In this document: positions 53,700 to 62,085 of the stretch, piece by piece
How positions within the stretch are numbered: position 1 is the first letter of the stretch
Layout of the letters: the number at the start of each line of letters is the position of its first letter
NCBI GenBank assembly: GCA_015062445.1
Contig: SUUQ01000002.1
Location: forward strand, 23,051-87,050
Direction of reading: 5' to 3'
Source of the DNA: Alphaproteobacteria bacterium
Lineage (GTDB): Bacteria > Pseudomonadota > Alphaproteobacteria > Rs-D84
DNA length: 64,000 nt
Notes under the pieces: generated by a model
What the model was told of the DNA's origin: nothing
Seen by the model: only the letters and a program-made list of their open reading frames with translations
Database searches by the model: none
Position numbers and translations under genes: made by a program

Positions 53700-54300
53700 C
53701 CGTGGCAATCCAGTAAATAGAAACCATACCCTCCACACTCATGTCATCCCGTGGCTGGACCACGAGACCCAGGTGTATACCTTTTCTTACTTTGTCATTG
53801 CAGGGCGAACCGTGGCAATCCAGTCTATTATTCTGCCTTGCCCCTCTGTCCTCATACCCATGCAGACCACCCCCTCATGTCATCCCGTTTCTAGAACTGG
53901 CAATAATATACACATAATAATATTTTTGTTCAAATCTGATAAAACAATGATGCATTACCTGGGTTCCGTGGTCCAGCCACGGAATGACAAAACACTTAAC
54001 ACATTTTATAAAATATAATTTTTATCCAGAACCCCGTCATACCGGCATCGGACCACTCCCACCCCCCGTCATACCGGCGCAGGCCGGTATCCATTGCAAG
54101 CCACCCAACCCCCACAAAAAAGAGCCGTTCAAAAAATTCCCCTCTCTGTGGGGAACATGCAGTGCCGGGGTGGTCTCAATCCCACCCCCGTCATACCGGC
54201 GCAGGCCGGTATCCATTGTGTTTTTCCCCCCCATGTCATCCCGTGGCTGGACCACGGGACCCAGGTGTATGCTTTTTTTTACTTCAACACCAAACAAAAA
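53700..54300. repeat. second intergenic cluster of the same palindromic MITE-like repeat families (A, B, C)
   Basis: Family B at 53737 and 54229; family C (roughly 160 bp) at 53873-54035; family A at 54058 and 54185; same orientation as the 18.1-19.4 kb cluster. Confidence 0.9.
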
Positions 54301-54336
54301 AAATCCCGCCAAATCGGCGGGATAATAACACTTTTA

Positions 54337-56733
54337 TCAGCGTTTTATAACAAAGTTTACCAATTTCTTTGGTACAACAATTGTTTTTACAATCTCCGCA
54401 TCGCCCAGTTTTGCCCCCGCCGCAGTTTTTGCCGCCGCAACAATTGCACTTTCGCCTGCATCTGCTGGCACGACAAATTCTGCCACACGTTTACCATTTA
54501 TTGACGCAACAACTGTCATTTCTGTTGCAATCAATTTAGACGGGTCAAATGTTGGCCACTGTTTGAACACCAGCATTTCAGAATTACCCAATTTTTCCCA
54601 CATTTCTTCGGTTAAATGCGGTGCGAACGGGTTCAGCATCTGCAACAATGTTTCATACGCAGGGCGGGGCATTTTACCTGCAAACGCATTGATAAATTCC
54701 ATCATTGCAGAAATCGCTGTATTAAAGCGCATATTTTCCAGACGTTCCGTCACATCTGCGATCAGTTTATGCACCAGACGTTCCTGTGCCGCGGTCATTT
54801 CATCATCTGTCAAATTATCTGCCAAGTTTTCCACACGTTTCAGGAATCGTTCCACACCACGCAGTGTATCTTCGGACCAGTTTGCACTTTGTTCCCATGG
54901 CCCCAGGTACAAGATTGCCATACGACATGCATCTGCACCGCTGCGTTCTACGACATCGGAACTGGGTACAGTATTACCGCGTGACTTTGACATCTTGGAA
55001 CCATCGGCCGCCATAATCAGACCATTGCTGGTACGTTTTTTATATGGTTCGACACCCGGTACAAATCCCAGGTCTGCCAATACCTTGTACCAAAAACGTG
55101 AATACAGCAAATGACGTGTTGTATGTTCCATACCGCCATTATAGTGGTCAACCGGCATCCATTTATCCAACTGTTCACGCGAACAAAACGCGTCATTATT
55201 TTTCGAATCCAAATACCGCATAAAGTACCACGAAGACCCCGCCCACTGTGGCATTGTATCTGTTTCACGTTTTGCCGCCGCACCACAGTGTGGACATTTT
55301 GTATTTACCCAATCCGTTGCACGGGCCAGGGGACCTTCGCCATCATCGGTTGGTTTATAGTCTGACATATATGGCTGCAGCAACGGCAATTCAGATTCTG
55401 GCACTGGCACCCAACCACACTTTTCGCAGTACACCAATGGAATTGGTTCACCCCAGTACATCTGACGTGAAAATCCCCAGTCTTTTAATTTATATTTGGT
55501 TGTACCACGTGCAAATCCGTGTTCTGTACCATATTTAATTGCGGCTGCAATTGCATCATCTTTGCCCATACCGTCCAAGAAAGAAGAATTTATATGTTCT
55601 CCGTCACCTTCCCATACCTGGTCTGGTTCGCCACCGGCCAAAACTGGAATAATATCCAGTCCGAACTTTTTCGCAAAGTCCCAGTCACGTCCATCGTGTG
55701 CCGGCACCGCCATAATCGCCCCAAATCCATAATCTGCCAAAACATAGTCTGAAATAAAGACCGGAATTTCACGTCCATTAAATGGATTTACGGCCTTGAT
55801 TCCTTGCAGTTCCACACCTGTTTTTTCTTTGGTAACATCTGTACGTTCGAACTCAGACTTGGCCCGTGCTGCGGCGATATATTCATTAACGGCATCAGTG
55901 TTTGTAATTTTACCTTCGTCCAGCCACTTTTTCACCAACGCATGTTCAGGTGCAATAACGCAGAACGTCACACCAAATATTGTATCGATACGCGTGGTAT
56001 AGACTGTCATCACATCATCACCGACACGGAAATTAACATCTGCGCCATGCGAACGTCCAATCCAGTTTATCTGTTCTGTTTTAACACGTTCTGGATAGTC
56101 CACCAATTTCAAATCATCGATTAAGCGGTCTGCATATTTTGTGATTGCCAGATTCCATTGCAGTTTCATTTTCTTTTCCACCGGCCCATGACAGCGTTCA
56201 CAACACCCGTCTTCTAACTCTTCATTGGTCAGGTTTGTTTTACATGCCGGGCACCAGTTCATTGGCAATTCAGACTTATATGCCAACCCCGCCCGAAAGA
56301 ACTGAATAAACATCCACTGCGTCCACTTAATAAACTCTGGATCTGACGTAGAAACCTTGGATTCTGGGTCAAACGATAACCCCATAATTGAAATATCACG
56401 TTCAAAAATCTTAATCAATTCCGCAACAGATTCGCTTGGATGCTTGCCAATTTTCGTTGCATAGTTTTCAGACGAGATTCCCATTGAATCATACCCAATT
56501 GGGAACAGAACATCGAACCCACGCATACGCCGCCACCGTGCCAACACATCCATACCTGTATACGGCAACATATGCCCCACATGCAATCCCGACCCTGATG
56601 GGAACGGAAATTCAATCAAATTATAGTACTTTGGTTTTGAACCGTCATTTTTTGGTGTAAAGGCACGTGCTTCCTGCCATTTTTTTTGCCATTTTGCCTC
56701 GCGTTCGTGAATTTTCTTCATATCGTCTGCCAT
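54337..56733 (-). CDS. leuS: leucine--tRNA ligase
   Basis: 798 aa; HIGH-type HVGH near the N-terminus (FPFPSGSGLHVGHMLPY), CP1 editing domain, KMSKS (SKMSKSRGN). Confidence 0.93.
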   Translation of the reverse strand: MADDMKKIHEREAKWQKKWQEARAFTPKNDGSKPKYYNLIEFPFPSGSGLHVGHMLPYTGMDVLARWRRMRGFDVLFPIGYDSMGISSENYATKIGKHPSESVAELIKIFERDISIMGLSFDPESKVSTSDPEFIKWTQWMFIQFFRAGLAYKSELPMNWCPACKTNLTNEELEDGCCERCHGPVEKKMKLQWNLAITKYADRLIDDLKLVDYPERVKTEQINWIGRSHGADVNFRVGDDVMTVYTTRIDTIFGVTFCVIAPEHALVKKWLDEGKITNTDAVNEYIAAARAKSEFERTDVTKEKTGVELQGIKAVNPFNGREIPVFISDYVLADYGFGAIMAVPAHDGRDWDFAKKFGLDIIPVLAGGEPDQVWEGDGEHINSSFLDGMGKDDAIAAAIKYGTEHGFARGTTKYKLKDWGFSRQMYWGEPIPLVYCEKCGWVPVPESELPLLQPYMSDYKPTDDGEGPLARATDWVNTKCPHCGAAAKRETDTMPQWAGSSWYFMRYLDSKNNDAFCSREQLDKWMPVDHYNGGMEHTTRHLLYSRFWYKVLADLGFVPGVEPYKKRTSNGLIMAADGSKMSKSRGNTVPSSDVVERSGADACRMAILYLGPWEQSANWSEDTLRGVERFLKRVENLADNLTDDEMTAAQERLVHKLIADVTERLENMRFNTAISAMMEFINAFAGKMPRPAYETLLQMLNPFAPHLTEEMWEKLGNSEMLVFKQWPTFDPSKLIATEMTVVASINGKRVAEFVVPADAGESAIVAAAKTAAGAKLGDAEIVKTIVVPKKLVNFVIKR

Positions 56734-56811
56734 TTGTATATTCCTATATTTTTTATGCTAACCTGGCGGATTTTACCGCCAAACATCAATGAATTCAAGC
56801 ATCTATTTTAA

Positions 56812-57540
56812 TTATTCTTTGAAAAAGTGTGCCAAGAATTCAACATTTCCACTGCCACCGTGGATTGGGGATTCTGTAATTCCACGCAATCGAAAACCAG
56901 ATTTTGCAAATGCATTAACCACCTGTTCGATTGCAAAGTCATGCCATTGTTGTGATTTTATAACCCCATTTGATTTTGCTGCAATTTCCCTAGGCACTTC
57001 GAACTGTGGTTTAATCAGTGCAATAATATCTTTTGCGCCCCATGGCGCCAGTGAATCTACAATATTTGTCAGCGAAATAAATGAAACATCTATCACGATT
57101 ATATCCACCACCGATTGCACGGCCAGGCCCCGAATATCGGTCTGTTCAATCGACACCACCCGAACATCATCTTTCAAGGATTGCGCCAACTGATTTGTAC
57201 CAACATCCACCGCATAGACACGCACCGCACCATTATTTAACAGAACCTCGGTAAAACCGCCGGTACTGGCCCCAACATCCAGACAAACCATACCCGCTGG
57301 ATTAATCTGAAAAGTATCCAACGCATGCGATAACTTCAAACTGCCACGTCCCGTGGAATAGGGCAAATCGCCACCACTTAACATATCTGATTCCAAAACA
57401 TCCTGACTGGGCTTTTTTGCGGTCATGCCATTAACCATCACCAGCCCAGACTTAATCGCCGCCACCGCCCGTGCCCGTGTCGAATATATATTTTGTTGAA
57501 CCAATGCCTGATCTAGTCTCATAATAGACCATGCTATCAC
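56812..57540 (-). CDS. tlyA: TlyA-family rRNA 2'-O-methyltransferase/hemolysin
   Basis: N-terminal S4 domain (MRLDQALVQQNIYSTRARAVAAIKSGLVMVNG), FtsJ-like SAM-binding domain (CLDVGASTGGFTEVLL). Confidence 0.88.
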   Translation of the reverse strand: MIAWSIMRLDQALVQQNIYSTRARAVAAIKSGLVMVNGMTAKKPSQDVLESDMLSGGDLPYSTGRGSLKLSHALDTFQINPAGMVCLDVGASTGGFTEVLLNNGAVRVYAVDVGTNQLAQSLKDDVRVVSIEQTDIRGLAVQSVVDIIVIDVSFISLTNIVDSLAPWGAKDIIALIKPQFEVPREIAAKSNGVIKSQQWHDFAIEQVVNAFAKSGFRLRGITESPIHGGSGNVEFLAHFFKE

Positions 57541-57605
57541 AGAAAAAATAAACTTGCCAACATTAATTATTTAAACTACTCTAAACACAAAAAAAGGATT
57601 TCACA

Positions 57606-57863
57606 ATGTTTACACAAGAACAGGGCACAAACGTTTTATACTGCAATGGCTGTATACATCATTGCAAATACGGTGCCAGTCCCTCTCGCACAGGTCCTGG
57701 TTATGCACTCAAATATGTACCAACCCTGAACGGGAAAAAAATATTAACCTACACAATGCAGGGTGGCCATACAACAGATATGACACTTTGCCAATCTGCG
57801 CCTGATGCATTACAATTGGCCGCAAAAATATCAAAACTGTGCGACAATTACAAAACACGATAG
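57606..57863 (+). CDS. small hypothetical protein (85 aa) with a CxxC...C cluster
   Basis: ORF in an otherwise decayed region; YCNGCIHHC possible metal-binding; weak. Confidence 0.3.
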   Translation: MFTQEQGTNVLYCNGCIHHCKYGASPSRTGPGYALKYVPTLNGKKILTYTMQGGHTTDMTLCQSAPDALQLAAKISKLCDNYKTR

Positions 57864-57879
57864 CCAGGGCGGGGCACAC

Positions 57880-58176
57880 ATGAATAAACAAGATAAAATC
57901 GACATACTGAAACGACAATTGCGCCATAAAACAACCCAGGGCAAAATTTTTAACATCTCGGGATACGGCTGCACCCTTGCATCAATCGCAGAAATTATAA
58001 ACAGTGTTTACCATGCCGCATCACAAAACACCGCCGAAGATTCCTGGGTTGCCCCGGCATACTTTGGTATGTTATTTATCATACTGGCACAAATGAGTTT
58101 TAATTCTGCCAACAATGCGTTGTCTGATGCCAAACGCACCCGAAAAAAAATCAACAATCTGCAAAAGCACAGATAA
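57880..58176 (+). CDS. small hypothetical protein (98 aa; start chosen at the internal Met)
   Basis: Ribosome-binding-site-like AGGGCGGGG upstream; C-terminal TM-like segment; weak; overlaps the minus-strand remnant ORF. Confidence 0.25.
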   Translation: MNKQDKIDILKRQLRHKTTQGKIFNISGYGCTLASIAEIINSVYHAASQNTAEDSWVAPAYFGMLFIILAQMSFNSANNALSDAKRTRKKINNLQKHR

Positions 58177-58560
58177 AAATCTAAAATTTCATGGTGCAGT
58201 GTCATAGTATTCATATTTCTCCCCAGAACAATAACCTTTAACCCTGCATCATAGTATCCGTTCGCTTGTGTGCCTTGATGGTAAATATTCCCAGTATCAG
58301 GACTGAATGTCCCCCTGTTCTGTGTGCTTTTTATTTGACTGGTTGTCTTGACTTGTTCCCATTTCTTGGCTACACTTAATCTTGAACTAGCAGGTGTGCC
58401 AGTATTTAGACTGGTTTTGAACATATCTGCTAGATTTTTTCTATCTCTACTTCGTGTAAGTAAAAACGATTTTGTTCTACACTTTTCTTTACGATTACTT
58501 CGCAAGTATAGTCTGCGATGTCCTCAGGTTTTTTCTTCACAAAATCAGCCCACCCCATAA
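58008..58560 (-). pseudogene. fragmented gene remnant (two frames), unidentified
   Basis: Minus-strand frames MGWADFVKKKPEDIADYTCEVIVKKSVEQNRFYLHEVEIEKI (58560-58432, stop) and a 165-aa ORF (58505-58008) are adjacent and out of frame with each other; no intact gene. Confidence 0.3.
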
Positions 58561-59107
58561 AAAAAATGTAAAAAATACCGCCCCATCGGCCATTTTTTCG
58601 CCGCAAACCCGCAGAAATCCGCCACTTTTTTCATTTTTTGATACCAGAGCAGGGCAAAAATCACATTTTTTGGCATTTTTTACCACTTCTAAGCATTTTT
58701 TTCAGCCCACATCTGTACCCACACAATAAACAGATAAATTAAATTATAAGTCTGATTACAAAAAGATATATTGCACTTTAACAGTAAAATATTAACTTAA
58801 ACAAAATCAGAAAACATCACACAACTTTACAACAAAGTTTTATTCAAACCAACGTTCATAAACCAATCCAAAGATATAAAACCACAACAGTATTGGCCAA
58901 AAGAAGAACCATAAAACAAAAAACAAAATTCTTTTCATATCGAAACACCATCTTTGTTATAATATAATTATATCAGAAATAATTCATATACACAAATTAA
59001 CCAAATCGATTTTCAGCGACCTGGGCATACAAATATACGTTCAGCACAATTCATCATCCCCACAGTGCATGTACACCAGAACAATTTTAACAGCCACGAC
59101 TCACCAT

Positions 59108-59352
59108 TGGCGATATATTATGTACACATTTGCGTATGCCCAGCACAGCAAACAATTCAGCGATATTATGTATACGTTTGCGTGCACCCACAGCACACCA
59201 AACTAAAAATTAGCCCTCACATCAAACAATTTAGCGATATTATGTATACGTTTGCGTGTGCCCCAGCAAACCAAACTTAAAAATTAGCGATATTATGTAT
59301 ACGTTTGTGTGTGCCCCAGCACACCAAACTATACATAATATACATTATGCGC
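59108..59352. repeat. four tandem iteron-like repeats of 55-70 bp (core gcgatattatgtatacgtttgcgtgtgccccagcacaccaaact) within a 1.1-kb A+C-skewed non-coding region
   Basis: Unit starts at about 59110, 59160, 59233, 59286; the last unit ends in a partial inverted copy (tatacataatata). Confidence 0.85.
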
Positions 59353-59658
59353 CTTTTGTATATCACTCCCCCATCATGAAAAAACACAATAAAAACCGCA
59401 CACGAAAACAAGTATTTTTCCACAAAAAAAATTCAGATTATTCACATAAAAAAAATAAACACACACCCCATACATATATCACTCACAACAACAAACCACA
59501 CTATAAAAAAATGCCGCACGCACCACAATAACAAAAAAATCACATAAAATCCATTTCCTTCTGCCCCACCAAACTATACATAACCACAATACCATCTACA
59601 TAAAAAAACAGGACACAACACTGCGCCCTGCCTTAACCTAACATGTTAACAAATCAAA

Positions 59659-60237
59659 TTAACGTTTTGTAATCTTTTTTATTTTTTTGATTTTATCCAG
59701 TGCATCATCTGCCACACCAGCGGCCAGTTTTGTTACCGTCTTGATACCTTTTTTCAACTCGCTGTCCTCAACTGCCGCCGTTGCAACTGGCTCAACATCT
59801 GAACAACAAAACGGACATTTTGTTGCAGAATTATTAATTGTCGATGTACAATACGGACACGCATGTGTATTCGCCGGTTTTTTATCACGCATTTTATTCA
59901 TCGTACGAACGAACAAGAATATTGCAAACATCGTTATAAAGAAACTGACCACAGAATTCAAAAACAACCCCATATTCAGTGTTGTTGCCCCTGCTGCCTG
60001 CGCCTGGGCAATTGTTTCATATGTTCCACCTGCTGGATTACTTAACACAAAGAACCACTGAGAAAAGTCAACCCCACCTATCAGCAATCCAATCGGCGGC
60101 ATAATAACATCCTTTACCAGTGAATTTACAACACTGGTCATAACACTACCAACAATGATACCAACCGCCATATCGATTGCATTACCACGTTGAACAAACG
60201 CACTAAATTCTTTAAATATATTTTTCTTTTTTGCCAT
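59659..60237 (-). CDS. mscL: large-conductance mechanosensitive channel MscL with a C-terminal zinc-ribbon-like extension
   Basis: N-terminal FKEFSAFVQRGNAIDMAVGIIVG... and two TM helices of MscL (about 135 aa); then CPYCTSTINNSATKCPFCCSD plus a K-rich tail. Confidence 0.85.
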   Translation of the reverse strand: MAKKKNIFKEFSAFVQRGNAIDMAVGIIVGSVMTSVVNSLVKDVIMPPIGLLIGGVDFSQWFFVLSNPAGGTYETIAQAQAAGATTLNMGLFLNSVVSFFITMFAIFLFVRTMNKMRDKKPANTHACPYCTSTINNSATKCPFCCSDVEPVATAAVEDSELKKGIKTVTKLAAGVADDALDKIKKIKKITKR

Positions 60238-60240
60238 TTT

Positions 60241-60861
60241 TTACTCCTTTTCTTGTTTATTCGAATAATCATCAATTGCGCGCAAAACCTTGCCCAATGT
60301 TTTACGCAAACTCTCATCACGCGTTTCGACTGTTATATCTGCCAACGCATACGTCTGATAACGTTCGTCGATTAATTGCTGCAAAATTTTACGGCTGTCT
60401 GTATTCAGCAACTGAGGCCGTGTATCACGCGCCCCAGTACGCCGAACCAACAAATCCAAATCCGCCCGCAACCACACAGACAGCGCCCGATTCAACACCA
60501 TTTCACGCACCGCCGGTGTTATAAATGCCCCTTCCCCAGTTGAAATTACCTTTAATGCCGGCGGTGTATCCAACAGGCGCTCAATCACCCGCTGTTCGAC
60601 ACGGCGAAATTCCTCTTCACCATACATTGCAAAAATATCTACAACACTACACCCCGCAGCAGCTTCTATTTCTTTATCAGAATCCACAAATGGAATCCCC
60701 AGTCGTCGTGCCAACGCACGTCCAACACTGGTCTTGCCAGCCCCCATCAGCCCAACCATAACCACAGGCCTGTCTATAAACTCTTCTTTTTCGTTTTTCA
60801 TAACGATATTTATCATATCAAATTTTCCCAAAAAAACAAGCCCATCCACCCGATTTATCAT
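60241..60861 (-). CDS. aroK: shikimate kinase (the likely start is the internal Met at 60801)
   Basis: Walker A VGLMGAGKTSVGRALARRLGIPFVDSD, LID and shikimate-binding regions. Confidence 0.85.
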   Translation of the reverse strand: MINRVDGLVFLGKFDMINIVMKNEKEEFIDRPVVMVGLMGAGKTSVGRALARRLGIPFVDSDKEIEAAAGCSVVDIFAMYGEEEFRRVEQRVIERLLDTPPALKVISTGEGAFITPAVREMVLNRALSVWLRADLDLLVRRTGARDTRPQLLNTDSRKILQQLIDERYQTYALADITVETRDESLRKTLGKVLRAIDDYSNKQEKE

Positions 60862-60945
60862 TTCTTGTTTTTATCCGTGGGATTTTTATGCTATAATATA
60901 ACACATAACTATCAAGATTCAATTAACCAAAAAGAGAGTACAACA

Positions 60946-62028
60946 ATGAAAAACATCACAGCATTAGCCACCATCATGATGATTGCAGGCATTTCACATG
61001 CGCACGCATTTGATGCGCACATTTACGCAAACACAATAACCACACACAACATCACCACACTGCAGCACACAATTACAAACACTGCTTTTGGTTCTTTTGG
61101 CGGTTCTATGGCGACAACATTGTCCAAGACCGCTACTTTAGCCCCCCAATCATCCAAAGCACCAAACAACAACGCAAAGATATACGGTTCCGCCCCTATT
61201 TACGGCGAATACAACGATGATGGCAGCGCTGGCCGCAGCGGCGGCGACAGATATAATTCAGACGCTACATTAACAGGCATGTGGTTCAATTGGCAACACG
61301 CATCTGAAAACACAAAATTTGACAGCTTTGAACGCCTGGATACAAAATTTGACAACGCCATGTTTGGTGTATCTGGAGGCCAAACAAAATTATGGAACGG
61401 CACATCCAAGTGGGGAATTTACGCTGGATATATCGATGGACACCAACAAAATTCAAACATTGACATATCTGAACAAGGTGGCTATGTCGGTATTTATAAC
61501 GGCAACAAATTTGGCAATCTGAACGTTTACACAACCATTAACGGTGGCGTTATTGACAATTCTGCCGACACTATATTAGGCACAGACGAATACACAAACA
61601 TGTGGGTTGGTGGCGCAGTTAAGACAACATACTCGTTTGCACTGGACGACACATTTTCGATAATCCCCGGATTGCACATTGGATACACCTGGGTCAAAGG
61701 CGAAAACTATACCGCCGCATCTGGTGACATTTTAAACAACGATGCATTTAGTGCATTTGAAATCACACCGTCAATTCGTGCTGTAAAACACATTGGCAAC
61801 GGATGGCACGGCGCATTAAGCAGCGCATATATCATAACAACCAACAACGGTGGCGACATATCAGTTAACAACATTGATGTCGACAATCTGGCCATGGGCA
61901 ACTTTATCGAATACAGCATATCACTGGAAAAGTCTGTCGCCCAATTTACATTTACCGCCAACATCGGTCGCCGTGACGGCGCCCGTGACGGCTGGATTGG
62001 CGGCATGAATATCAAATACGCATTTTAA
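60946..62028 (+). CDS. outer-membrane beta-barrel protein (autotransporter beta-domain-like); start at the internal Met with signal peptide
   Basis: Signal peptide MKNITALATIMMIAGISHAHA; alternating amphipathic beta-strands; C-terminus ...GWIGGMNIKYAF (terminal aromatic) typical of OMP/autotransporter barrels; the ORF is open from 60865. Confidence 0.65.
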   Translation: MKNITALATIMMIAGISHAHAFDAHIYANTITTHNITTLQHTITNTAFGSFGGSMATTLSKTATLAPQSSKAPNNNAKIYGSAPIYGEYNDDGSAGRSGGDRYNSDATLTGMWFNWQHASENTKFDSFERLDTKFDNAMFGVSGGQTKLWNGTSKWGIYAGYIDGHQQNSNIDISEQGGYVGIYNGNKFGNLNVYTTINGGVIDNSADTILGTDEYTNMWVGGAVKTTYSFALDDTFSIIPGLHIGYTWVKGENYTAASGDILNNDAFSAFEITPSIRAVKHIGNGWHGALSSAYIITTNNGGDISVNNIDVDNLAMGNFIEYSISLEKSVAQFTFTANIGRRDGARDGWIGGMNIKYAF

Positions 62029-62057
62029 TAACAAGTAAAAGCAACAAAGAAAAAATC

Positions 62058-62085
62058 CCGCAGTCGCGGGATTTTTTTTCTTCAG
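62058..62085. terminator. bidirectional terminator
   Basis: Hairpin atcccgcagtcgcgggat followed by T8. Confidence 0.6.

Follow-up and report, generated by a model that had tools for sequence, protein, structure and literature searches.

A gap of about 2 kb separates tlyA from mscL in the window, the whole 64-kb stretch of DNA that was analyzed. Two small ORFs, a gene remnant, several non-coding elements, a dif site with an array of repeats beside it, and a terminator were located here:

57606-57863, plus strand: ORF85, encoding a Cys-rich protein of 85 aa
57880-58176, plus strand: ORF98, an orphan of 98 aa with one hydrophobic stretch, WVAPAYFGMLFIILAQMSF
58170-58558, minus strand: putative remnant of a polyvalent-protein gene, frameshifted and truncated
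58601-58680, minus strand: 80-nt non-coding element with phased A-tracts; cores TGCCCTRYTCTG and AAAAAATGGCGGATTTCTGCGG
58690-59060: AT-rich block, with sigma-70-like hexamers at 58934-58968 (plus strand) and a conserved palindrome/hairpin at 59001-59024, core AAATCGATTT
59106-59330, plus strand: array of four tandem units (termed iterons in the first-pass annotation), each a stem-loop followed by an inverted XerD half-site
59163-59174, 59237-59248, and 59290-59301: half-site core ATATTATGTATA, with a degenerate copy at 59115-59126
59302-59329: dif-proximal stem-loop, linking the XerD arm of dif with the first inverted half-site
59328-59355, minus strand: dif site, with XerC arm AAGGCGCATAA, central region TGTATA, and XerD arm TTATGTATAGT
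59356-59571: variable spacer next to the XerC arm of dif, G-poor (A+C-rich)
59572-59583, minus strand: orphan XerD arm TTATGTATAGTT, with the same orientation as dif, shortly after the mscL terminator
59605-59634, minus strand: intrinsic terminator of mscL, a 13-bp stem followed by a T-run

A hairpin equivalent to the mscL terminator also follows mscL in relatives. Enterousia is a member of the order Rs-D84, reduced-genome Alphaproteobacteria of the gut. Enterousia genomes are approximately 0.75-1.0 Mb in size (PMC12306168).

The first-pass annotation had found no intact gene over 2.1 kb, a description that the two plus-strand ORFs contradict. Homologues of ORF98 share 87-100% identity and occur in the same lineage only, and the ORF has no match in Pfam or PHROGs. 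Its dN/dS ratio against three diverged strains (L014 and L015 among them) is 0.08-0.19, compared to 0.14 for the neighbouring tlyA, and in L013 a terminator hairpin follows it directly. Judged from this sequence conservation, ORF98 is a real gene under purifying selection. ORF85 is present as an intact ORF in L014 and L015 with approximately 50-52% amino acid identity. It belongs to a family of domains of approximately 80 aa that was found in the Enterousia lineage only, in single, tandem, and fused forms, and that is usually divergent from tlyA. Paralogues were identified in 12 related loci, with invariant residues C13, G15, C16, C20, P39, and C79. Among 5.8 billion proteins the family forms only 16 clusters, none with a Pfam domain, and the AF2 model of ORF85 (pLDDT 65) showed no significant fold match.

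Two overlapping minus-strand ORF fragments in different frames were indeed found at 58008-58606. By tblastn, the remnant shares 60% identity over 70 aa with a 361-aa protein in L024, which contains an ART-PolyVal domain (PF18760, E 3e-13) and a HELSH motif, and 75% and 59% identity with a similar remnant in L026. The segment at 58182-58526 is strain-variable, being present in L015 and absent from L013. These matches identify the minus-strand remnant as part of a 'polyvalent protein' gene from a mobile element.

A dif site is approximately 28 bp long and has two arms of approximately 11 bp, inverted inner CATAA/TTATG motifs, and a 6-bp central region. Both this layout and the similarity to known dif are found at 59328-59355, which is identical to Escherichia coli dif at 22 of 28 positions, 20 of them contiguous. 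This is the top match in the window, compared to a highest score of 20/28 among 30 shuffles, and no other dif-like site occurs within the 64 kb. All 21 Ca. Enterousia species loci that span the interval between mscL and tlyA have a single copy of a 25-mer of dif there, with a constant orientation and 0-2 mismatches. One exact match was likewise obtained in every one of 95 metagenome stretches, among them contigs of 851, 595, and 380 kb. The sequence flanking dif is largely unalignable between species loci, and the site is conserved in non-coding DNA amid variable surroundings, as expected of dif. The usual chromosomal dif is present in a single copy at the replication terminus, near the GC-skew switch. 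Here, however, no sign change of the four-fold-site GC skew was seen over 59 kb leftward of the site (68 kb in contig L202) or over 10 kb rightward, and the replication terminus possibly lies beyond the scanned distances. No xerC, xerD, or ftsK genes and no tyrosine-recombinase motifs were found in the window and 39 related loci; the host XerC/XerD would presumably act at 59328-59355.

The non-coding DNA around dif is conserved to very different degrees. The 80-nt element is found in nearly all Enterousia loci with 75-93% identity, in one orientation and without exception on the side of dif that carries the XerD arm. The window and nearly all loci have one copy, L021 and L029 have two, and the element has neither a reading frame consistent across species nor an Rfam match. 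The AT-rich block shares 94-100% identity with L013 per 50-nt window (98-100% over 58750-58999), although the dS of ORF98 and tlyA beside it is 0.07-0.14; the block is conserved above the neutral level. It is partly conserved in L019, L021, L024, L026, L032, L033, and L034. The G-poor spacer shares only approximately 40-65% identity with L013 and appears unconstrained. The first-pass annotation was right that the plus strand is poor in G here (GC skew -0.68 and AT skew +0.41 at 59350-59649), but this is not a local oddity. Four-fold sites on both sides of the gap are skewed in the same direction: plus-strand values are -0.2 to -0.8 for genes on both strands and both sides, and the skew of the spacer equals that of the neighbouring genes (-0.63 to -0.74). 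The A+C richness thus reflects the genome-wide replication-strand mutational skew, which is visible because the spacer is unconstrained.

Reductive erosion had been offered as an alternative for the region. In its plain form, one or more genes would have decayed in place, and the repeats would be meaningless slippage products. The reduced genomes of the genus, the frameshifted remnant, and the unconstrained spacer at 59356-59571 agree with such a history. Yet dif and the half-sites, like the 80-nt element and the AT-rich block, are conserved across species or beyond synonymous divergence, well beyond the neutral level, and the interval in relatives has been expanded by insertions and is not shrinking. 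Plain erosion is therefore scarcely credible as an explanation.

The array is confirmed: four direct repeats lie at 59106-59330 at start-to-start steps of 48, 74, and 53 nt, and an inverted arm follows the last unit, at 59320-59341. The 25-nt repeat core has no second site in the 64-kb window, where the chance expectation is 0. The first copy is degenerate (62% identity). Each unit contains an inverted XerD arm and 3 nt of the dif central region, and the XerC arm is absent. By this match, the repeat core of the array is the XerD-binding arm of the neighbouring dif, inverted. The inverted 12-mer, TATACATAATAT, is exact in most units; mismatches to the array consensus occur at 4% of positions in this core versus approximately 16% in the flanks, so that the core is approximately 4-fold better kept. 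Homologous arrays of 1-7 units were found at 10 of the 22 species loci and at 41 of the 95 from metagenomes, in both sets always on the XerD side of dif. The nearest inverted half-site always lies 15-36 nt past the XerD arm of dif.

Together, the dif arm and the first unit form a hairpin (or cruciform) of approximately 52 nt at 59290-59341. The dif-proximal stem-loop has a folding energy as DNA of -9.3 kcal/mol (z = -3.4), compared to z = -1.4 to -1.8 for the distal units. Across nine species, 94% of its cells are paired, with compensatory changes at 3 pairs. In the metagenome loci, z < -2 was obtained for 14 of 20 distinct stem-loop variants despite their unrelated stem sequences. The outermost unit carries the degenerate half-site and the unit beside dif the strongest hairpin. 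The orphan XerD arm lies within a further copy of CACCAAACTATACATAA at 59567-59583. In 12 of 23 loci its exact 12-mer, usually after a GGA, is found on the XerC side at a distance of 230-367 nt from dif. The XerD arms in the array probably still bind XerD. A full inverted site that keeps an XerC-like arm is found in L023, where there is no prophage.

Hairpins of this kind could also belong to RNA. The units would then be tandem small RNAs or a structured leader read rightward from 58934-58968, with C-rich-loop hairpins and with the G-poor tail as a Rho-dependent terminator. In favour of this, a promoter-like TTCATA-18-TATAAT, with TG upstream of it, is found within highly conserved sequence, compensatory changes are seen in the hairpins, and C-rich, G-poor sequence follows downstream. 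However, Rfam gave no match at the gathering score, and even at E <= 10 only chance-level matches of snoRNA type. The best-conserved part of the unit is the dif-arm 12-mer and not the hairpin, the hairpins of units 2-4 are weak, and half of the species have no units; the G-poor composition equals the genome-wide skew. We consider this reading very unlikely.

The first-pass annotation compared the repeats to iterons of a plasmid or phage replication module that decayed after integration. Such a module, made up of iterons, an unwinding region rich in AT, and the decayed gene of a Rep protein, would account for direct repeats adjoining an AT-rich block (GC 28-32%) with phased A-tracts, for two one-mismatch DnaA boxes 22 nt apart in the spacer (59416 and 59438), and for a mobile-element gene remnant close by. 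These boxes, however, are not conserved in L013 and are at chance level (23 DnaA boxes in the window against an expectation of 24), and there are no CtrA boxes. The ORFs and remnants of the region have no Rep or initiator match in Pfam or PHROGs, and the 2.1-kb DNA has no plasmid match, its sole phage match being the 32-nt dif site. In addition, the repeat core equals the XerD arm of the adjacent dif, and both the AT-rich block and the A-tract element belong to the conserved backbone of the chromosome, also present in species without repeats. A replication module is highly improbable. For an iteron-type oriV, neither the adjacent Rep gene or remnant nor the enrichment of DnaA boxes was found. 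Relatives do carry a polyvalent-protein gene (L024) and Rep-bearing prophages at this locus, but the remnant itself is ART-PolyVal-like and not Rep. The iteron/Rep part of the earlier proposal thus falls away, and its mobile-element part survives: integrated elements shape the locus, as seen from the polyvalent-protein remnant and from Microviridae in five relatives.

The spacing between mscL and tlyA ranges from 0.6 to 9 kb among related loci. Microviridae prophages were identified at exactly this locus in five related species (L018, L022, L024, L029, and L036). All five encode a Phage_F capsid protein (E down to 2e-92) and a rolling-circle Rep (phrog_942), and have dif-like sites at their boundaries. 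The relatives thus contain integrase-less elements flanked by dif-like repeats, as expected of Xer-exploiting mobile elements (IMEX); the window holds debris and half-sites only. Free forms carry a matching attP (L103 and PQ007109). GenBank microvirus PQ007109 contains an exact 32-nt copy of window positions 59329-59360, and the free circular microvirus L103 has a stem-loop between two inverted dif-like sites. In total, 61 phage records, most of them of gut Microviridae, align with the dif portion of the query, and the repeat unit is absent from all phage records searched. A double inverted dif-like site, in which both copies have an XerC and an XerD arm and could pair into a forked hairpin as in a CTXphi-type attP, is present in L103, PQ007303, and L023 and at the junctions of L022, L024, and L036. 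The layout of site, stem-loop, and inverted site is shared by the array, the microvirus attachment region, and left prophage junctions.

Collectively, we consider it probable that the 2-kb gap is best explained as a whole as the dif locus of a Candidatus Enterousia chromosome that serves as a landing pad for small single-stranded DNA phages, and not as a plasmid or phage replication origin. In this proposal, dif would serve as the attachment site for IMEX, here Microviridae. Relatives and free phage genomes show such use of dif, and the interval between mscL and tlyA has consequently become a hypervariable repository of element debris, which in the window comprises the polyvalent-protein remnant together with the small genes ORF85 and ORF98. 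Each unit is probably a degenerate inverted dif-like site that has kept the XerD arm with the adjoining half of the central region and lost the XerC arm. The layout shared with microviruses and prophage junctions suggests that the array consists of the stacked remains of palindromic attachment sites. The youngest unit would lie beside dif and older units would decay outwards, with the XerD arms maintained, probably through continued XerD binding. The model needs a putative step in which the prophage body is lost and the palindromic junction is left. Ordinary XerC-first integration alone deposits no scars at the array, because the array is on the XerD side of dif, and the site adjoining the array has the five prophages on its XerC side. 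The prophage orientation fits exchange at a site on the non-packaged strand, and single-stranded integration is hypothetical here. Units within one array are alike, as local duplication would also give, and this similarity speaks against the scar model.

Alternatively, the array may be a selected host structure and not a set of scars, in which hairpin-linked XerD half-sites and the orphan arm load or hold XerD. Possible roles are control of Xer recombination, blocking or trapping of phages as they integrate, and unloading of SMC complexes, the last as known for XerD-only sites of Bacillus subtilis. The approximately 4-fold better conservation of the 12-mer core, which is identical across species with differing stems and spacers, would fit this role, as would the pairing kept by unrelated stem sequences, the presence of units in 41 of 95 loci, and the exact orphan XerD arm at a fixed place in 12 of 23 loci. 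XerD-only sites with a non-recombination function are also known (PMC9226527). On the other hand, approximately half of the species have no units, and of the closely related loci L025 and L027 only one has a unit. Between 0 and 7 units are present per locus, the distal ones are decayed, and none has the XDS layout. A selected structure is possible but in our view doubtful. An extended version appears unlikely: the half-sites and orphan arm would be a selected functional extension of dif in Rs-D84, a folded-DNA or multi-XerD structure governing Xer recombination or phage integration at a dif far from the skew-defined terminus, and microviruses would copy the palindromic layout to recombine as folded DNA. 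If true, the Xer system would work without the usual FtsK/KOPS positional control, and the phages would use an integron- or CTXphi-like folded-DNA route that is not described for Microviridae.

The preferred reading, a dif locus used by microviruses, can be compared with several known systems. In Legionella, the dif site of the dif/XerL system was recognised by integration of the mobile element LME-1 and by conservation amid varying neighbours, as an intergenic site of approximately 28-30 bp, and the distance from dif to the skew inflection is 89 bp to 79 kb in genomes of 3-4 Mb (PMC9765430). The Enterousia site is similarly a conserved intergenic site of approximately 28 bp with variable neighbours that is targeted by mobile elements. 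Unlike in Legionella, no inflection lies within 59-68 kb here, in a genome of approximately 1 Mb or less. XDS of Bacillus subtilis and Staphylococcus aureus are XerD arms outside dif that unload SMC independently of XerC; in these sites a XerD arm is followed by a degenerate central region and then by the inverted 5 innermost bp of such an arm, and the sites are scattered over the terminus region (PMC9226527). The Enterousia units are also XerD arms outside dif. However, they are tandem, directly beside dif, and without the inverted inner 5 bp, since after the central region they read TAATT, TAAAT, or TGAAT and not TTATG.

Integrons have a primary site followed by tandem imperfect palindromes whose structure is conserved and whose stem sequence is not. 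Their attC sites have a short conserved core, and the tyrosine recombinase acts on folded single-stranded DNA. By analogy only, dif and its array resemble such a primary site followed by tandem palindromes with a conserved core. They differ from integrons in having no integron integrase and no cassette ORFs, in units of only 48-74 nt, and in a core that equals the XerD arm.

The attP of CTXphi consists of two inverted dif-like sites that fold in single-stranded DNA. The same double inverted layout is found in L103 and PQ007303 and at the L022 and L024 junctions; in the window, no pairing extends beyond the XerD arms and 3 central-region nt. Most attP sites show the opposite of the units here, in which the XerD arm is retained and the XerC arm lost. 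At Vibrio cholerae dif1, the integrase-less elements CTXphi, RS1, and TLCphi insert at dif via the host Xer proteins, and in the resulting IMEX arrays dif-like sites lie beside the live dif, with the integration order readable from the distance to dif (PMC9226527). Unlike these IMEX, the Enterousia elements are Microviridae and not Inoviridae, and the window contains no body of an element; what it has are 48-74-nt units, located on the XerD side of dif. Among Microviridae, Enterogokushovirus carries a non-coding dif motif and integrates by XerC/XerD next to E. coli dif (Kirchberger and Ochman, 2020; PMC7062461). That paper makes no mention of hairpins, inverted motifs, or half-site arrays, and describes prophages flanked by one host-like motif and one phage motif (PMC7062461). 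Here, by contrast, the host is a reduced-genome alphaproteobacterium and some phages have a palindromic double site. The L018 and L029 prophages show the same layout of host-like and phage motifs as Enterogokushovirus.

The region between the tlyA and mscL genes is a dif/IMEX locus, a known kind of system in which mobile elements (IMEX) exploit the host Xer recombination machinery. It is flanked by the following genes:

56812-57522, minus strand: tlyA-type FtsJ/S4 rRNA methyltransferase, left flank of the region
59659-60237, minus strand: mscL, right flank of the region

On the minus strand, positions 59329-59353 read GGCGCATAA TGTATA TTATGTATAG (the dif 25-mer), with a XerC arm, a 6-bp central region and a XerD arm. 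No other site in the window lies within 7 mismatches of this sequence. The E. coli dif 28-mer also has its top window match here (22/28 positions, compared with 20/28 for the best among 30 shuffles). Relatives were retrieved by a TlyA protein scan with one genome per species, which yielded 24 loci (67–76% TlyA identity) from Candidatus Enterousia and unnamed Alphaproteobacteria MAGs of ruminant and other animal guts. Candidatus Enterousia, a genus of the order Rs-D84, has a genome size of ~0.75–1.0 Mb (PMC12306168). The gene order aroK-mscL-(gap)-tlyA-leuS is preserved in the retrieved loci, with gap lengths from ~0.6 kb to ~9 kb. All related loci spanning the gap contain the dif 25-mer with 0–2 mismatches and in a single orientation relative to the flanking genes; the DNA flanking dif is mostly unalignable among them. 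An exact-pattern scan of JGI metagenomes recovered 95 stretches with one dif copy apiece, on contigs of up to 851 (OIXQ01000001.1), 595, and 380 kb, and most of these stretches have mscL on dif's XerC side. Twelve metagenome contigs are 100% identical to the locus over 57400-59800 and are uninformative on within-species polymorphism. Sequence, conservation and the flanking of elements all identify the site as dif; its position relative to the terminus, within the range visible, does not. Neither xerC nor xerD was found in the window or in the related loci searched, and the sequence of the 28-mer suggests that XerC and XerD act on it. The dif of an uncultured gut genus with a reduced genome is thereby located.

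Microviridae use the Enterousia dif as an attachment site. A Microviridae prophage fills the gap in five related loci (L018, L022, L024, L029, and L036), and each encodes a Phage_F capsid (PF02305, E down to 2e-92) and a replication initiator (phrog_942, PF23343); the L024 prophage also encodes a pilot protein. The L018 and L029 prophages each lie between two direct dif-like sites. In L022, L024, and L036, the mscL-side junction begins with a XerC arm, an 11-nt centre, a XerD-like arm and a short stem-loop, after which come a XerD-like arm and a XerC arm, both inverted and separated by a 6-nt centre, with a perfect dif at the opposite end. The same double inverted site occurs in the free circular microvirus L103 (77-nt terminal overlap), and PQ007303 (L105) carries a palindromic version of the dif site. 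The coordinates of the paired inverted dif-like sites, including the short stem-loop between them, are:

L103, 3352-3416
L105 (PQ007303), 131-186
L022, 2894-2959
L024, 1213-1281
L036, 4800-4865

When the 2.1-kb region was searched against phages, the sole match was an exact 32-nt copy of 59329-59360 in bajarodmic virus 862 (PQ007109), where it is intergenic and follows the Rep gene. With an 85-nt query, the dif part was matched by 61 phage records, mostly Microviridae (rodent, cattle, lemur, and marmot gut), and the adjoining repeat-unit part by none of these 61. The exact dif 25-mer was not found in IMG/VR. A 17-mer of the repeat unit gave seven single matches in viral contigs, all of them large, which were judged to be due to chance. 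Microvirus integration at the E. coli dif via XerC/XerD has been demonstrated experimentally (PMC7062461). In the prophages described here, the left junction has a phage-type centre and the right junction a host-type centre, and the microviruses probably integrate by XerC-side exchange. Single-stranded (CTXphi-type) integration of the packaged strand is not claimed, because the L022 and L024 prophages are oriented as expected for an exchange at the site with its forward reading on the non-coding strand. The locus bears on how single-stranded-DNA phages become lysogenic.

Next to dif, the four tandem repeats that the first-pass annotation had described as iteron-like were confirmed at 59106-59330, as was the inverted arm following the last of them (59320-59341). 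The repeats are direct, with a spacing of 48, 74, and 53 nt and a degenerate first copy. Their 25-nt core occurs nowhere else in the window, and an extra 17-mer copy is present at 59567-59583. In dif orientation, each unit contains a stem-loop and then GTATACATAATAT, the reverse complement of the XerD arm plus the adjoining 3 nt of the centre. A diverged remainder of the centre follows (TATCGC in the window, TATAGA or TATGCA in other species), and A/T-rich sequence occupies the place where the XerC arm would be. This array of hairpin-linked XerD half-sites is a new variant feature of the known dif/IMEX system; a limited literature search retrieved no description of half-site arrays beside dif or of palindromic dif mimics in Microviridae.

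Half-site arrays are found beside dif in ~40–45% of the loci examined, with at least one unit in 41/95 metagenome loci. The window has four units, L018 seven, L013, L017, L027, and L028 three each, L021 two, and L019 and L022 one each; eleven species have no unit. L023 has a single full inverted site, including a XerC-like arm, without a prophage. The first inverted half-site is invariably located 15–36 nt past the XerD arm of dif. The sequence between half-sites folds as a hairpin, and the unit nearest dif has z scores of −3.1 to −4.9 in 6/9 species. In this hairpin, 94% of cells are paired and compensatory changes occur at three pairs, for example from GTGTGC/GCACAC in the window to GTATGC/GCATAC in L013. 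Among 20 distinct metagenome variants, 14 have z < −2, and their stem sequences are unrelated. In the window, folding is poor for the units farther from dif (z = −1.4 to −1.8), and the outermost one has a degenerate half-site. An orphan exact XerD arm, TTATGTATAGTT, was also identified in direct orientation on the XerC side, 230–367 nt from dif and past the mscL terminator, in 12/23 loci. In the window it is located at:

59572-59583: orphan XerD arm, directly past the mscL terminator

In metagenome loci of a more distant lineage (L108, L122, and L143; MscL ~50% identical), the order leuS ... mscL-aroK is kept and dif plus array is inverted relative to the flanking genes, an arrangement that recombination between inverted Xer sites could produce.

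The resemblance between the units and the phage junctions suggests that the array may represent the stacked remains of palindromic attachment sites like those of these phages, in which case the youngest unit would be the one adjoining dif. A derivation of the exchange suggests that a XerD-first reaction with a folded site would put the hairpin and the inverted arm where they are observed. What speaks against such scars is that the array lies on the XerD side, whereas the observed prophages lie on the XerC side of the array-abutting site. The tandem, direct arrangement of the units could also have been built by local duplication. Within arrays, divergence from the array consensus is 4% for the 12-mer, 16% for the 28 nt upstream and 15.6% for the 10 nt downstream. 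Under the attachment-site origin, the XerD arms have probably been retained because XerD still binds them; that the whole array is instead a XerD-binding structure selected by the host is considered less likely. We favour stacked phage attachment sites as the origin of the array.

The region had been proposed to be a replication module decayed after integration. This was a misreading of a real feature. The region fails the tests for an iteron origin. Searches for Rep or initiator proteins in Pfam or PHROGs found nothing for either small ORF or for the remnant in either frame, and the 2.1 kb had no blastn match among plasmids. Rfam returned nothing at the gathering score and nothing above chance at E ≤ 10. 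DnaA boxes occur at chance level and CtrA boxes are absent; together with the lack of a skew switch, this led us to reject an origin or terminus in the window. Iteron-like repeats in gene-poor gaps may be dif-derived, and a comparison with the dif consensus should precede any origin call.

The reported strand skew exists, with GC skew reaching −0.68 in 59350-59649, but it is not local. Across 52 genes from both strands, four-fold degenerate sites have a plus-strand GC skew of ~−0.25 for plus genes and ~−0.55 for minus genes, and of −0.63 to −0.74 in the genes neighbouring the region. The spacer is as G-poor as the four-fold sites of its neighbours and therefore reflects the genome replication-strand bias at unconstrained sites. 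Over the window and its L007 and L202 extensions, the sign of the skew is constant for 59 kb leftwards (68 kb in contig L202) and 10 kb rightwards, which places dif away from any skew switch within these ranges. The position of dif relative to GC skew is the main anomaly of the locus, and the limited literature search retrieved no account of it. An alternative contig (L203) shows mixed or positive skew left of ~−4.5 kb, with values that are not trusted; the change might mark a rearrangement or the terminus.

The gap was also thought to hold no intact gene. ORF98 (57880-58176, plus strand), however, is under purifying selection (dN/dS 0.08–0.19) and has its own terminator in L013. ORF85 (57606-57863, plus strand) represents a family of ~80-aa domains that is specific to this lineage, has four invariant cysteines and is found next to tlyA in single, tandem, and fused forms. 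A profile search retrieved 16 clusters only, all lineage-restricted, and no fold matched the AF2 model (pLDDT 65) at E < 0.1. In three species, an ORF85-type domain is fused to a ~190-aa C-terminal domain (motif AWEFGPCDSEIY, no Pfam match), and other species have a tandem pair of ORF85 domains. The fusions are:

L019, 9080-9906
L024, 9097-9898
L026, 9086-9898

The minus-strand remnants in two frames were correctly recognized, as overlapping ORF fragments span 58008-58606. The remnant at 58170-58558 matches a portion of the gene for an ART-PolyVal protein in L024, and a similar remnant is present in L026. A 345-bp piece (58182-58526) is absent from L013. A conserved element follows:

58601-58680, minus strand: non-coding 80-nt element that has phased A-tracts; its core, TGGCGGATTTCTGCGG, is nearly invariant

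Almost every Enterousia species has this element between dif and tlyA (the XerD side), and it is single-copy in nearly all loci, with a second partial copy across dif in L021 and L033. In the shortest loci it lies 90–180 nt upstream of tlyA. Tested as a coding sequence, it has no conserved reading frame, and judged by eye it does not fit a sigma-54 or sigma-70 promoter. An AT-rich block (58690-59060) shares 94–100% identity with L013 in 50-nt windows, and 98–100% over 58750-58999, although neighbouring synonymous divergence is 0.07–0.14. Within this block, a conserved palindrome or hairpin was observed at 59001-59024 (CCAAATCGATTTTCAGCGACCTGG, core AAATCGATTT); similar sequence is located downstream of the arrays in L017, L108, L122, and L143.

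Several further observations were made around the locus. Comparison with L013 revealed a sharp divergence breakpoint at dif and the array (54248-59060 vs. 59350-62077), with synonymous divergence of 0.14 for tlyA, 0.07 for ORF98, and 1.24 for mscL. This reflects either homologous exchange that ended at dif or a chimeric metagenome contig joined at the repeats. MscL (59659-60237) is extended at its C terminus by a zinc-ribbon-like tail containing two CxxC pairs (CPYC...CPFCC), and the extension is kept in relatives. Downstream of leuS, a G+C-rich (0.54) non-coding segment at 53770-54330 has overlapping spurious ORFs on both strands, with translations including PVIPAQAGIH and AGMTGGG motifs, and looks like a repeated palindromic element. 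About 5–6 kb past the right end of the window, contig L007 (913-2412) encodes a reverse transcriptase (RVT_1, 348 aa), preceded by a 108-aa ORF and adjoining rnhA; possible identities are a retron, a diversity-generating element or the remnant of a group II intron.

The half-site arrays beside dif, the CTXphi-like microvirus sites and the off-switch dif bear on the control of Xer recombination. XerD-only SMC-unloading sites (XDS) were considered and rejected, as the layout of the window half-site arrays does not match them, nor do the arrays fit a complete CTXphi-type attP. The double inverted sites of the gut microviruses and their prophages have a layout like that of the CTXphi attP. In Legionella, dif sites are found at up to 79 kb from the skew switch, but in genomes of 3–4 Mb (PMC9765430) compared with 0.75–1.0 Mb in the Enterousia genus. 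Overall, the Enterousia locus works like V. cholerae dif1, an IMEX landing site, and like the dif that enterogokushoviruses use in E. coli.
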